Part shown: positions 59,696 through 64,000 of the stretch, piece by piece
Position numbering within the stretch: position 1 is the first letter of the stretch
Layout of the letters: the number at the start of each line of letters is the position of its first letter
Source of the DNA: Actinomycetota bacterium
Lineage (GTDB): Bacteria > Actinomycetota > CADDZG01 > JAHWKV01
Reading direction: 5' to 3'
Length of the DNA: 64,000 nt
Assembly: GCA_019347715.1 (NCBI GenBank)
Contig: JAHWKU010000010.1
Coordinates: 10,805 to 74,804 of the forward strand
Made by a program: the position numbers and the translations under genes
Notes under the pieces: model-generated
The model's database searches: none
What the model saw: only the letters and a program-made list of their open reading frames with translations
Told to the model about the DNA's origin: nothing

Positions 59696-61689
59696 AACGG
59701 AGAACCCTTCTCCTCGTTTCTTCGGCTCTTGCTTTTTTAATCCTGCCGACACTCGTTTCTGTAGCTCTCGCGCGGGGCCATCTGGTTAGCGCGGAGCAAT
59801 ATCTCCTGCGAGCGAAAGGAAATCTGAAGGCATTTGATTTGCCAGCAGCGGAAAGTGATCTCAAGGCCGCCGACGCTTCACTACGCAGGGGAGAGCGGCT
59901 TGTCGACTCTCCGATCAACTTCGGAGGACTGTTGGTTCCCATCGTGAGTGAGAACCTGACGGTACTTCGAGCGATTGCGGACTCGTCAGGTGAAGCAATT
60001 GCCGCCGGCCAATCTGCAATCGCGGTTCTGAATGCCTTCCCTCGTCAGGAAGGGCGATTGGTCGCACCGTGGAGAGAGGGGGCGGTGAACCTCGAGCCTT
60101 TCAGGCACCTCGAGGCCGAGACTTCATTCATGCGAAGCCGAGTGGAAGCCGCGGCCGCCAGGATGTCGAACACCTCGCCCGATCTCCTTTTGCCGGCCAT
60201 GTCCCGTGCCCGTAGTCGACTCACCAGCGAGCTGGTTGTCGCGCGTGCTCAGGCCAGAGCAGCTACGGGGGCAGCCTTTCTCATCCCGAGAATGCTGGGC
60301 GACGAAGGAGCGCGCAGATGGATCATCGGTGCCGAGAACATTGCGGAACTGAGAGGGCGAGGAGGCTACGTTGGTTCATTCGGCGTCCTCGAGACGACGA
60401 AAGGTCGCATGGCCCTCGGCGATTTTGTCCCGGTCGCAGATCTTCCTGCCTTGTCTTCCGAGTTGAGACGCAATCCCGACGTGCCGCCGGAATACCGGGA
60501 GCACTACGCCGAGATCGGAGGGCTGGACGCCTGGCCCAACCTTTTCATGAGTCCCAGCTTTCCTTCCGGAGCATCTTTGTTCGCAAGGCAATTGAAGAAT
60601 CAGGTGGGAATCTCATCGGATGGTGTGATCTCAATCGATCCTATTGGGCTCTCATACCTCATGGAAGTGACCGGACCCGTGACGGTCGAGGGATTCCCCG
60701 AACCCCTCACTTCAGAAAATGTCGTTGAGTGGTCGCTCAGCCGCCTGTATTCCGATCTCGAGCAAGATCAGGACGCACGCCGCGAGCAATCATCGAAGAT
60801 CGCGGAGGCGGTATGGCGTCAGCTGACGACGGCAAGGTCGCTGGACTCGCGCAAGCTCTCTGAAGCGTTCGGACGTGCCCTCGCCGAACGCAGAATGGTC
60901 TTGTGGTCAAAGGAATCTCGGGAGCAGAGCGAAATCGAGAAGCTGGGGATTGGTGGGACCATCTCACAATCGCCTGGGGATTATTTGATGCTTGTCAGTC
61001 AGAACTTCGGTGAGAACAAGCTCGATTACTACCTGGAACGCAGCATCGAACTGACCGGCCGGATCCGCTCCGATGGGAGCCTGCTCGCGGAGACGAAAGT
61101 GACGGTGACGAACACCGCCTCCACGGATGTTGATCTTCCGGGAGCGGTTGGAGGGGAGCGGCCCCGGCTCGACCTGGCCTCCGGCACCGCGCGCAGCTTC
61201 CTAAAGCTTTTCGTCCACCAGAATGCTGTGCTCACCGAAGTTCTGAAAGATGGAGAGCCGACCACCGACTTCGAAAACTCCCCCGAACTCGGAAAGAGGC
61301 GATTCGCGGTCTACGCCGAAGTTGCTCCTCGAGAAACCCAGGAGTTTCGGTTCCGCTATCTCGTTCCCGACATACTCGACGAAGAAGGCTACGACCTCAC
61401 GGTGCAGTCCCAGTCGACGGTGCGTCCCGATCGCCTAAGGGTGGATCTGGAATTGCCGGCGGGGGCGAGGCTCAGTCCCTCTGGTACTCAGCGGATCCAA
61501 TGGAGCGAGGCCCTTACTGCGGATAAGACGCTGCACGCCAGCATCGATCGAACCGTTCCCATGAGAATCGCCGGCATCGCGGCAGGATTGGGGTCCTCAC
61601 AGTTGTGGCTTGCTCTCGGCCTGGGCGTCGTGCTGACTTTGGTGGGGATCTCGTTGAGGTTTCGGTTATCGAACAGAGAAATTCCGTAG
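59692..61689 (+). CDS. DUF4012 domain protein (membrane-anchored, extracytoplasmic)
   Basis: 665 aa. N-terminal signal/TM, DUF4012 signature IGAENIAELRGRGGYVGSFGVL, C-terminal TM helix. Paralogous to the C-terminal part of the preceding fusion. Confidence 0.8.
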   Translation: MKRRTLLLVSSALAFLILPTLVSVALARGHLVSAEQYLLRAKGNLKAFDLPAAESDLKAADASLRRGERLVDSPINFGGLLVPIVSENLTVLRAIADSSGEAIAAGQSAIAVLNAFPRQEGRLVAPWREGAVNLEPFRHLEAETSFMRSRVEAAAARMSNTSPDLLLPAMSRARSRLTSELVVARAQARAATGAAFLIPRMLGDEGARRWIIGAENIAELRGRGGYVGSFGVLETTKGRMALGDFVPVADLPALSSELRRNPDVPPEYREHYAEIGGLDAWPNLFMSPSFPSGASLFARQLKNQVGISSDGVISIDPIGLSYLMEVTGPVTVEGFPEPLTSENVVEWSLSRLYSDLEQDQDARREQSSKIAEAVWRQLTTARSLDSRKLSEAFGRALAERRMVLWSKESREQSEIEKLGIGGTISQSPGDYLMLVSQNFGENKLDYYLERSIELTGRIRSDGSLLAETKVTVTNTASTDVDLPGAVGGERPRLDLASGTARSFLKLFVHQNAVLTEVLKDGEPTTDFENSPELGKRRFAVYAEVAPRETQEFRFRYLVPDILDEEGYDLTVQSQSTVRPDRLRVDLELPAGARLSPSGTQRIQWSEALTADKTLHASIDRTVPMRIAGIAAGLGSSQLWLALGLGVVLTLVGISLRFRLSNREIP

Positions 61690-61755
61690 AGCCGATTGAC
61701 ACTTGCTTGCTGCGAAGGATAGCTTTCGGAGCAGGCTGCTGGGAGGAGTTTAAAG

Positions 61756-62034
61756 TTGACGAGAATTGTCCGTTTTGCATGCCCAACACTGATACTCGTG
61801 GGTCTCATGCTGACCCTTCTTGCCGCGGCGGCGTTGGTCGCGATCGAGACCGCCCCCGTCGAAGCCACACTGCCCGGGCTCGACGACATGGATCCCAAGA
61901 TAGGAACGATCGTGCATCACGGTTCTCCCTACATGAGCCCGTGTGGAGCTTCACGGTCCGACCCGCCCCCGAGCCCACCAGAAGGAGGCAAGGGTGGAGC
62001 GTCTGAAGAGTGCCGACCTGCCCACAGCCGGTAG
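61756..62034 (+). CDS. putative small secreted protein (92 aa)
   Basis: TTG start 7 nt after GGGAGGAG. Signal-peptide-like MTRIVRFACPTLILVGLMLTLLAAAALVAIETAPVEA. Mature part has 2 Cys and a Pro-rich segment. Supported only by ORF, RBS and signal peptide. Confidence 0.35.
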   Translation: MTRIVRFACPTLILVGLMLTLLAAAALVAIETAPVEATLPGLDDMDPKIGTIVHHGSPYMSPCGASRSDPPPSPPEGGKGGASEECRPAHSR

Positions 62035-62113
62035 TCGAGAAGCAATACAGGCAAGTTACTTTCAGTAAATTCTCCGCTTCTAAAAGTGAGAAAAGGTGGA
62101 CTTAGAGTCATAA

Positions 62114-62665
62114 ATGGGTAATCATCTACCGATTATGAAGAGAGCCCTGCTGTTAACCATTGTTCTAGTTTTCCTTTTTCTTCTGCCCACTGCGGCAGTC
62201 GCGCAGTACCCGCCAACCGTCGGGGATTTGGTCATCGACAAAACCGTGGTGGAGCCCGGAGAGTCCGTCCGGGTATCCGGCGGCGGTTTCTGTCCAGGGA
62301 CTCAGGTGACCGTGACGCTAGTTCCAACCGGTTCGACGACCGGTGCGCCTCGGGCGCTCGGGACATTCACCACAGACGCCTCGGGCAATTTCGCGGGAAG
62401 CGTGATTATCCCTACCGATACTCCTCCCGGCACATACACGCTTCAAGCGACGGGTCAGAGCAGTGATTGCGTTGCGACTCGGGTCCTTAGTGCCAATCTC
62501 ACCGTGCGGGCCGCGCAGGCCGCGGTCGCTCGGGGCCCCCGTGGCTTTGGCGCAGTAACAGGGATCGAAGCGCTCCCCTGGGTGGTAGGCGGCTTGGCGG
62601 TAATCGGGCTTGGGACTGGGATGGTCGTGATCTCACGCCGCCGCTCCCGTGCTCCCCTGAGCTGA
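62114..62665 (+). CDS. secreted Ig-like/beta-sandwich protein with C-terminal TM anchor
   Basis: 183 aa. Signal peptide MKRALLLTIVLVFLFLLPTAAVA, Gly/Thr-rich beta region, C-terminal hydrophobic helix plus RRRSR. Preceded by an AT-rich promoter-like stretch. Confidence 0.5.
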   Translation: MGNHLPIMKRALLLTIVLVFLFLLPTAAVAQYPPTVGDLVIDKTVVEPGESVRVSGGGFCPGTQVTVTLVPTGSTTGAPRALGTFTTDASGNFAGSVIIPTDTPPGTYTLQATGQSSDCVATRVLSANLTVRAAQAAVARGPRGFGAVTGIEALPWVVGGLAVIGLGTGMVVISRRRSRAPLS

Positions 62666-62737
62666 TCGGCGCAGTTTCACAACTAGCTCCTCTGCCTATA
62701 ATTGAATTTCTAGTTGTCCTCTAGGCCGAAGGACTAA

Positions 62738-64000
62738 ATCCTGGAACTCCGTGACTATCTGAGGCTTCTCTGGCGGCGCAAGTTCCTTATAGCGCTTGCC
62801 GTTGTCGTTGCCACCGGTTCGGCTCTAGCTTTCTCGCTGCGACAGACGCCACTGTATGAAGCTTCGGCCAAGATCTTTATCGGTTACCGATCGGTCGGCG
62901 AGGGAGACGTTTCGTCCGCGCTGCAGGAACTGACCGCCGGCGATCGATTCATGACCTCCTACGCCGAGGTTCTCAAGAGTCAGCCGGTTGCAGCAAAACT
63001 GATTGACAGGGAGAACCTTCCTGCCGATTCTCAAGATGTCGCCGCCTCGGTTGAAGCTCGGGTCATTCCGGATACCCGCATCATCGAGGTGACCTACACC
63101 GATACCGATCCCCGGAGAGCACGACGAGCCGCCAATTCCTTGGTAGCAATCTTTGTTCAAGAAGAGGTAGAGAACCTCGGAGGGGCCGAAGCCGTATCGG
63201 CAAGACTCCTGGAGCCTGCTCAGCTTCCAACCGAACCGGTCAGTCCCAAGCCTCTTCGCGATGGCCTCCTCGGAGGAGTTCTCGGCCTGGCACTTGGAGT
63301 CGGAATGGCCTTTCTCCTCCAGCAGCTCGACACGACCCTTCGCACCAGAGAGGACGTCGAGGAGGCTCTGTCGCCCCTTCCGGTGCTGGCGGGAATTCCC
63401 AAATCCGACGCCGGAAAGGAACGAGCGCTCTTCTTCGAAAACGACACTCGGTCCCCGGCGTCGGAGGCCATCCGGAATCTTAGGACCAACATTCAGTTCT
63501 TCTCGGTTGATAACCCCATCCGTCTGCTCGTTGTGACGAGCCCTTATGCTGAGGACGGCAAGACCACCGTTGCCGCCAATTTAGCTGCGGCCATAGCAGC
63601 ATCGGGCGTGAGGGCACTGGTGATGGAGGCGGACCTGAGACGCCCAGCGCTCGGCGAGTACTTCAACTACTTCGATCCGCAAAAGCGCGGGGGCCTGACC
63701 GAGGTGCTGGCCGGCGTCGAGAGGCTCAAGGATGTCATCAGAAAGACTCACATCCCGAACCTTTCCTTCCTTCCCGCCGGCTCAATTCCGCCCAACCCAT
63801 CCGAGCTTTTGGGAAGCCATCGGATGGAGGAGGTGCTGGATGAAATGAGGACTCATGCCGACGTGGTCGTGATCGACACCCCTCCAGCCCTCGCAGTCAC
63901 TGACTCTCTCGTGCTAGGAGGGAAGGCAGATGGCGTGGTGCTGGTCGTGCGGGCCGGGGTGACTCATCGCGAGAGGGCGAGAGAAGCCAAGGATGTGTTC
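62738..64000 (+). CDS. Wzz/Wzc-like polysaccharide co-polymerase with BY-kinase domain (3'-truncated); non-canonical start
   Basis: Open frame from the TAA at 62735 to the window end. ILELRDYLRLLWRRKFLIALAVV is a Wzz N-terminus with TM. ...LLVVTSPYAEDGKTTVAANLA is the Walker A of a BY-kinase. ...VVVIDTPPAL is Walker B-like. No ATG/GTG/TTG near the N-terminus. ATC at 62738 lies 5 nt after GAAGGA. Confidence 0.7.
   Translation, partial: MLELRDYLRLLWRRKFLIALAVVVATGSALAFSLRQTPLYEASAKIFIGYRSVGEGDVSSALQELTAGDRFMTSYAEVLKSQPVAAKLIDRENLPADSQDVAASVEARVIPDTRIIEVTYTDTDPRRARRAANSLVAIFVQEEVENLGGAEAVSARLLEPAQLPTEPVSPKPLRDGLLGGVLGLALGVGMAFLLQQLDTTLRTREDVEEALSPLPVLAGIPKSDAGKERALFFENDTRSPASEAIRNLRTNIQFFSVDNPIRLLVVTSPYAEDGKTTVAANLAAAIAASGVRALVMEADLRRPALGEYFNYFDPQKRGGLTEVLAGVERLKDVIRKTHIPNLSFLPAGSIPPNPSELLGSHRMEEVLDEMRTHADVVVIDTPPALAVTDSLVLGGKADGVVLVVRAGVTHRERAREAKDVF

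Follow-up and report, generated by a model that had tools for sequence, protein, structure and literature searches.

A near-cognate CUG codon as the probable start of a polysaccharide co-polymerase/tyrosine autokinase gene in an uncultured actinobacterium

How is translation initiated on a gene whose reading frame offers no ATG, GTG, or TTG codon ahead of its conserved N terminus? The question is raised by a gene at the right-hand end of a 64,000-nucleotide (nt) stretch of DNA (the window; NCBI assembly GCA_019347715.1, contig JAHWKU010000010.1, positions 10,805 to 74,804) from an uncultured Actinomycetota bacterium. This gene encodes a polysaccharide co-polymerase (PCP) of the Wzz type joined to a BY-kinase (coding sequence at 62741 to 64000, + strand, if read from the codon favored here). 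A preliminary description of the window had proposed that it starts at an ATC codon. The need for a noncanonical start has stood up to the present analysis; the ATC itself has not, as the starts of orthologs align to the CTG that directly follows it. Translation of the kinase most likely begins at this near-cognate CUG (62741 to 62743), to judge from the comparison of sequences set out below.

The kinase frame opens without a canonical start codon

Direct reading of the sequence places a TAA stop (62735 to 62737, + strand, like all kinase features below), the ATC (62738 to 62740), and the CTG (62741 to 62743) in immediate succession in the Wzz/BY-kinase frame, the TAA being the last of five in-frame stops after the upstream gene and closing the frame on that side. 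Translated from the ATC, the frame reads I-L-E-L-R-D-Y-L-R-L-L-W-R-R-K-FLIALAVVVATGSALAFSL, where FLIALAVVVATGSALAFSL is the first transmembrane helix (TM1; 62783 to 62839), preceded by a positively charged RRK cluster. TM1 is conserved in the alignment of homologs and lies entirely 5' of the earliest in-frame ATG, GTG, or TTG, which is the ATG at 62951 to 62953 (codon 72 counted from the ATC); a product begun there would be devoid of TM1. The preliminary description was thus right that the frame opens directly after a TAA and that the first canonical codon lies more than 50 codons on, past TM1.

How unusual such an opening is can be gauged from the gene cluster of the window in which the kinase lies. 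There, ATG, GTG, and TTG make up 6.4% of in-frame codons, a 70-codon stretch free of them has a P value of ~0.01, and 5 of the 511 observed runs reach such a length. A run of this kind is unusual and not extraordinary; what counts is that it covers the conserved N terminus. The Pfam Wzz model aligns residues 3 to 90 of the protein to model positions 4 to 89 of 91 (46.9 bits; cutoff, 25.5), and this match from residue 3 onward means that the protein truly begins at the opening of the frame. The kinase gene requires a noncanonical start.

Orthologs begin at the codon equivalent to the CTG

We compared the starts of the 60 top homolog proteins and retrieved the DNA of 15 loci. The annotated start lies exactly one codon before E-L-R-D-Y-L in 37 of these proteins (M, V, or L, followed by ELRDYLRILW...); 8 others are slightly extended at the N terminus or show variant motifs, and the remaining 15 are truncated calls. 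At the DNA level, the codon 5' of the Glu is ATG solely in the next-closest relative (L021; 58% identity), GTG in L003, L008, L013, and L014, TTG in L002/L004, L005, L006, L007, L009, and L015, and CTG in the window, L001, L017, L018, and L020. Most loci have an in-frame stop 1 to 4 codons 5' of the start, which fixes its position tightly, and no locus has a canonical start farther upstream in the open frame. In the protein alignment, Leu2 of the window (the CTG) falls under Met1 of the orthologs and Ile1 (the ATC) is an unmatched overhang; the codon equivalent to the ATC is CTT in both L001 and L021. The ELRDYL motif is conserved, and all orthologs keep the RRK cluster and TM1. Orthologs that begin at the internal Met without TM1, which the preliminary description had named as the finding that would speak against its proposal, were not encountered: the orthologs start here, TM1 included.

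Two of the public calls that begin at internal codons, P0040 (locus L002) and P0028 (L015), do so despite a TTG with an SD-like (Shine-Dalgarno-like) motif at the orthologous position. These two truncations are plain gene-caller mis-starts and not noncanonical starts.

One of the CTG loci is the nearest ortholog, L001 (ENA ERZ1758434, from a forest sample; 76% identity). Its start region reads TGA GAG GCC CTT CTG GAA CTC CGT GAT, with the CTG at the matching site, GAGAGG 5 nt upstream of it, and neither ATC nor ATT present. The region aligns base for base with that of the ATG-start locus L021 (ctgagaggcccttCTG in L001 versus ctgagtaacgcttATG in L021). The proportion of synonymous differences (pS) between the window and L001 is 0.71, so that synonymous sites are near saturation, and over codons 2 to 71 the proportion of nonsynonymous differences (pN) is 0.26. 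The ratio of nonsynonymous to synonymous substitution (dN/dS) is ~0.15 over these codons and 0.07 in the rest of the gene. Codons 2 to 71 are therefore under purifying selection, which indicates that the stretch before the first canonical start has been translated and selected through a long divergence. As far as these sequences tell, the lineages of the window and L001 have both lacked an ATG, GTG, or TTG at the conserved site throughout their divergence.

These data bear directly on a start at ATG 62951. It is the choice that gene callers would be expected to make, but its product would lack the RRK cluster and TM1 that every ortholog has, and selection acts on precisely the codons that it would leave untranslated. 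We consider this reading, taken together with the delivery of ribosomes from upstream that is discussed below, extremely improbable.

They bear equally on the view that the start is simply broken, the gene being a pseudogene or unexpressed, or that assembly or sequencing has wrongly put a C at 62741 in place of T, A, or G. A single substitution would turn CTG into TTG, ATG, or GTG; the source is a metagenome-assembled genome; and switches from canonical to CUG starts are very rare (~1e-4, with 2 among 61,358 AUG, 1 among 5,080 GUG, and 1 among 2,468 UUG starts; PMC5622118). Moreover, the protein collection holds no 100% match to the kinase, while proteins of its neighbors (MBW3589282.1 and MBW3589284.1) are present, so that NCBI may have flagged the gene as a pseudogene or missed it. 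Against this stand an open reading frame (ORF) intact over at least 420 codons and strong purifying selection (dN/dS of 0.07 to 0.15 against L001). In addition, the CTG recurs in L001, an independent assembly from another sample with near-saturated synonymous divergence, and at the matching site in L017, L018/L019, and L020, which come from other runs. Its presence in so diverged a relative suggests that the CTG state is old and has been maintained, and the combination of a shared CTG with selection despite saturated synonymous sites argues against both a recent start-loss pseudogene and an assembly error. We regard a broken or misread start as very unlikely.

A further CTG locus, L017, belongs to a homolog of 45% identity found in an unrelated run and reads TAG GAG GGA ACG CTG, i.e., AGGAGG, 5 nt, and CTG, with a predicted SD duplex of -10.7 kcal/mol. 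Scans of genomes and metagenome contigs recovered only orthologs of ~54% identity or less and no further members of the CTG clade.

Two side observations concern other loci of this group. L018/L019 (positions 1 to 2985) carries a tandem pair of Wzz/BY-kinase genes, and two sequencing runs give the same sequence for the locus; in the second gene, the ATG of the type seen in P0050 is out of frame through a GGGGG run, and a CTG with GGAG is the only start-like signal. In L001 (811 to 849), a 12-codon upstream ORF (uORF) in another frame begins at a GTG 5 nt past the TATAAT box and overlaps the CTG; this uORF is absent from the window and could be leaderless.

Shine-Dalgarno spacing favors the CTG over the ATC

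The kinase start is preceded by a Shine-Dalgarno (SD)-like GAAGGA (62728 to 62733), of which AAGGA (62729 to 62733) pairs with the 3' tail of 16S rRNA. By our count, GAAGGA lies 7 nt from the CTG and 4 nt (CTAA) from the ATC, not the 5 nt previously given for the latter. For the duplex energies we used a 16S tail that we take to be of the actinobacterial type; with it, the AAGGA/anti-SD duplex has a value of -6.2 kcal/mol (about the 15th to 20th percentile of random window positions). An SD match of at least 5 nt is found 4 to 9 nt before 4.4% of arbitrary positions.

The spacing favors the CTG. Throughout the non-ATG orthologous loci, the paired block lies 3 to 6 nt from the NTG, and the window CTG, at 6 nt, falls within this range. 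The ATC, 3 nt closer than the CTG, is 4 nt from AAGGA and ~2 nt away if the motif is aligned to the full AAGGAGG; by the latter alignment it is closer than any orthologous start, although the host's own optimum may differ. In the E. coli spacing studies of Ringquist and of Chen, AAGGA reportedly needs ~5 nt or more. An SD-like purine-rich motif precedes the NTG in every non-ATG locus and is missing from the single ATG locus (L021). SD sequences stronger at CTG than at GTG or TTG loci were not found (-6.2 to -10.7 versus -4.8 to -10.2 kcal/mol).

As a side observation on the window as a whole, the anti-SD energies of its 39 canonical gene starts are near background (median of -3.7 versus -3.0 kcal/mol). 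The canonical genes would thus seem to make little use of SD pairing overall; the starts assumed here may in part be incorrect.

A conserved, probable -10 box and the isolation of the kinase from the upstream gene

A TATAAT sequence at 62697 to 62702 is the probable -10 box of the kinase gene and would give a 5' untranslated region of ~30 nt. TATAAT or CATAAT occurs 36 to 65 nt before the start codon in 12 of the 15 orthologous loci. The kinase gene thus probably has its own promoter and a ~30-nt leader. A sigma-70 consensus scan of 61600 to 63000 found no full -35/-10 promoter and no terminator, the -35 element being weak or absent; TTCACA was rejected as a -35 element, as its distance of 15 nt from TATAAT is outside the 16- to 18-nt rule. 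Folding of the leader (62709 to 62790) was not significant (z = 0.15), and we discarded a small GTCCT/AGGAC hairpin over the SD as evidence of regulation.

A separate structural feature was noted in relatives. Just 3' of the TATAAT box, at the predicted mRNA 5' end and ~40 to 60 nt before the TTG, L002, L005, L006, L007, and L009 share a GCTTCG-N8-CGAAGC stem-loop. Its stems are identical across the TTG-start clade, with no covariation, and it is missing from the window and L001.

The position of the conserved box between the two genes also weighs on whether ribosomes might be delivered to the kinase from upstream by read-through, by frameshifting, or by reinitiation after a 7-codon TTG uORF (62714 to 62737). 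The upstream gene shares the frame of the kinase, and the uORF's TAA abuts the ATC and CTG. Read-through is contradicted by the five in-frame stops after the upstream gene (at 62663, 62684, 62699, 62711, and 62735), and frameshifting by the lack of a canonical start in the other two frames over 62659 to 62750. The gap itself offers no canonical starts except TTG 62702 (3 codons, ending at TAG 62711) and TTG 62714 (7 codons, ending at TAA 62735), which open in-frame mini-ORFs; both are devoid of an SD and neither is conserved, the 7-codon one not being conserved in L001. On the grounds of the stops, the empty frames, and the SD-less, unconserved uORF, we rejected all three links to the upstream ORF; the frameshift to an ATG-initiated ORF that the preliminary description had thought of as a possible alternative has no counterpart in the sequence.

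CUG or AUC as the initiation codon

The choice of CTG over ATC as the kinase start has these grounds: the CTG is aligned with the ATG, GTG, and TTG starts of orthologs, L001 has the CTG but no ATY codon, and the CTG has the better SD spacing. We infer that initiation takes place at CUG and not at the neighboring AUC. The initiator tRNA would then read CUG with a first-position mismatch, and the protein would be fMet-Glu-Leu-Arg-Asp-Tyr-Leu.... Transcription would yield an mRNA whose 5' end lies a few bases past the TATAAT box (62697 to 62702), and the 30S subunit would be placed by AAGGA (62729 to 62733), 7 nt 5' of the CUG. If E. coli and mycobacteria are a guide, initiation would proceed at no more than ~1 percent of AUG efficiency and be subject to discrimination by initiation factor 3 (IF3), and the kinase would probably be made in small and possibly tunable amounts.

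Initiation at AUC 62738, alone or along with CUG, would give a protein one residue longer (fMet-Leu-Glu-Leu-Arg...). The open frame begins with this AUC, a recognized near-cognate start (in E. coli, CUG, AUA, AUC, and AUU each reach 1 to 2% of AUG initiation; bioRxiv 10.1101/063800). ATC starts dnaA in Deinococcus (PMC2830850), N-terminal extensions are tolerated among the kinase homologs, and another gene of the window apparently uses ATT (see below). However, no ortholog start or residue is aligned to ATC 62738, its equivalent being the CTT of L001 and L021, and it is 4 nt from AAGGA (~2 nt by the full AAGGAGG), as against the 3 to 6 nt that separate the paired block from the CTG of the window and from the NTG starts of orthologs. 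On balance, we think an AUC start unlikely.

Several observations nevertheless count against the CUG. (i) The two codons are adjacent, and both could serve. (ii) In an SD-driven selection in Mycobacterium smegmatis, ATG accounted for 20.5%, GTG for 22.2%, TTG for 28.7%, ATT for 9.8%, ATC for 0.2%, and CTG for 0.03% (PMC4633059); this ranking of CTG below ATC, if carried over to the host, is part of the principal evidence for the AUC over the CUG. Likewise, CTG, ATT, and ATC were not enriched at start sites in Mycobacterium tuberculosis by Ribo-RET (PMC9094748). (iii) The SD of the kinase, which had been described as strong, is moderate: its -6.2 kcal/mol lies near the 15th to 20th background percentile, and the chance of such a motif is ~4 to 15%. 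(iv) L018 and L020 have the CTG and no canonical start upstream, but their close relatives P0050 and P0055 start at ATGs that lie 14 and 5 codons farther upstream, respectively, so that we downgraded both from independent CTG cases to ambiguous ones. (v) In L001, L017, and L020, a canonical start 9 to 15 codons downstream would retain most of TM1. (vi) CTG is the commonest Leu codon (27%), and N-terminally extended homologs often have Leu at the start position, so that the sharing of a CTG with L001 is not significant by itself.

Relation to known near-cognate starts

Translation table 11 includes near-cognate starts, and AUU starts infC and pcnB in E. coli. Together with these, with Deinococcus dnaA, and with the ATT starts of M. 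smegmatis, the starts considered here form one class of near-cognate codons that are discriminated by IF3 and depend on a good SD. Unlike in infC, pcnB, and dnaA, the ATY codon of the kinase is not positionally orthologous and is probably too near the SD, and no infC-like autoregulatory logic is evident. Precedents with a CTG start are rpsL in Deinococcus-Thermus, where it is conserved, and the gene of the plasmid protein RepA in E. coli (Baudet et al. 2010, PMC2830850). As in those cases, the window would have CUG where relatives have a canonical start; its CTG is conserved among related genomes, was overlooked by tools that consider only ATG, GTG, and TTG, and was arrived at from a conserved N terminus and an alignment of nucleic acids. 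The Deinococcus case differs in having peptide evidence, whereas the window CTG is known from sequence, in an envelope polysaccharide kinase of an uncultured actinobacterium. Unlike for the hosts of rpsL and RepA, the only experimentally tested actinobacteria, the mycobacteria, use CTG very poorly.

The kinase CTG is accordingly of a known type, that of rare and weak near-cognate initiation, and calls for no new mechanism. Mildly unusual are its recurrence within one protein family, the presence of an ATT start in the same window, and the contrast with the mycobacterial data.

A glycosyltransferase gene with an ATT start in the same window

The preliminary description spoke of two ATY starts in the window. 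The other is probably that of a GT4-family glycosyltransferase gene (1 to 1123, - strand), which leaves the window at its left end. Its ATT (1111 to 1109) is preceded at 5 nt by AAGGAGG (1123 to 1117, - strand), with a pairing energy of -11.7 kcal/mol, stronger than that of any of the 39 canonical starts and past the 1% background quantile. The stop of the upstream GT2 gene (TGA, 1115 to 1113) ends 1 nt before the ATT (TGAcATT). Orthologs begin M-A-K-V-L-I-Y and the window has I-P-K-V-L-I-Y, so that the ATT is aligned with the ortholog Met. Among the relatives of the glycosyltransferase, P0122 is an ortholog at 88%, and P0170 is truncated where its contig ends. A start at ATT 1111 (- strand) is thus well supported by sequence comparison; with its codon on the ortholog Met and AAGGAGG 5 nt upstream, it resembles the AUU- and AUC-start genes infC, pcnB, and dnaA and the ATT starts of M. 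smegmatis. This half of the earlier claim holds, and the kinase half gives way to a probable CTG, which leaves a single good case, the ATT, behind the suggested wider use of ATY starts. A scan of the real genes of the window for further near-cognate codons with an SD ahead of the first canonical start found no others.

In all, 2 of the ~55 genes of the window need a noncanonical start, one an ATT and one most likely a CTG. Both are apparently misannotated, as had been suggested of such genes: the NCBI record of the glycosyltransferase (MBW3589233.1, 100% identical) begins 15 residues late, at MAGPAIRY, and the kinase has no 100% protein match. Gene callers restricted to ATG, GTG, and TTG truncate or drop genes of this kind; P0001, the closest ortholog, is recorded without its N-terminal start, and the kinase is apparently absent from protein databases. 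In a membrane protein, topology signals are lost when the start is misplaced, and predictions of function and structure go astray. The main value of the present case lies in annotation, with a plausible tuning of expression via a weak start codon: its conservation on a polysaccharide co-polymerase/kinase suggests deliberately low or IF3-sensitive expression.

A broader reading would be that this uncultured lineage, and perhaps its relatives, has relaxed start discrimination (e.g., through an altered IF3 or initiator tRNA) and uses CUG and AUU routinely, at percent-level frequency. The hint comes from the 2 of ~55 window genes and from at least 3 to 5 of the 60 closest kinase homologs that are without a canonical start. 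It comes also from the contrast with the ~1e-4 rate of CUG switches elsewhere and with the near inactivity of CUG in mycobacteria. We hold this to be quite unlikely; were near-cognate starts common in the lineage, its proteome would need systematic reannotation and it would offer a natural case of relaxed initiation fidelity.

Identity of the protein and its genomic setting

Besides the Wzz match, AAA_31 and related P-loop models of Pfam match the C-terminal half of the kinase, a weak GNVR match covers residues 151 to 193, and TIGR01007 (polysaccharide biosynthesis tyrosine autokinase) reaches 153 bits (cutoff, 108.05). The translation contains the Walker A, A', and B motifs (EDGKTT, EADLRRP, and VVVIDTPP), and its N-terminal Wzz/PCP domain lies between two transmembrane helices, TM1 and TM2, both visible in the translation. 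The nearest proteins are tyrosine autokinases of uncultured Actinomycetota. The coding sequence leaves the window before the Tyr cluster, the end of the window falling ~30 residues short of its position in orthologs (e.g., DAQYYYRYYQRY in P0001 and DAYYYYRYYHGY in P0002). A full-length Wzc-like polysaccharide co-polymerase/tyrosine autokinase is the best explanation of the gene. With the Wzc/Etk-type (PCP-2a) BY-kinases it shares the Wzz domain, the two transmembrane helices, the P-loop domain with Walker A/A'/B motifs, and a place among polysaccharide genes that include a Wzy-like polymerase and glycosyltransferases; its orthologs also have the C-terminal Tyr cluster. It differs from them in scoring far under the cutoffs of full-length Wzc equivalog models and in the long acidic tail of its orthologs beyond the Tyr cluster. 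In P0001, P0002, and P0014, this tail has 100 to 300 residues and is apparently acidic and of low complexity, which is unusual for Wzc-type kinases.

No tRNA genes were found in a scan of the window. The region from 38832 to 64000 (+ strand) is a large polysaccharide cluster with a Wzy_C polymerase-like gene, GT4 glycosyltransferases, a carbamoyltransferase, and a methyltransferase. These are accompanied by a 997-amino-acid (aa) fusion of Glycos_transf_4 and DUF4012, a 665-aa DUF4012 protein, and a small MG2-like anchored protein, after which comes the kinase. The 183-aa ORF directly upstream of the kinase (62114 to 62665) opens at ATG 62114, and its NCBI record (MBW3589284.1; KY429_07685) begins at ATG 62135 and has 176 aa. 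The gene order DUF4012, small protein, kinase is also found in L015, L017, and L021.

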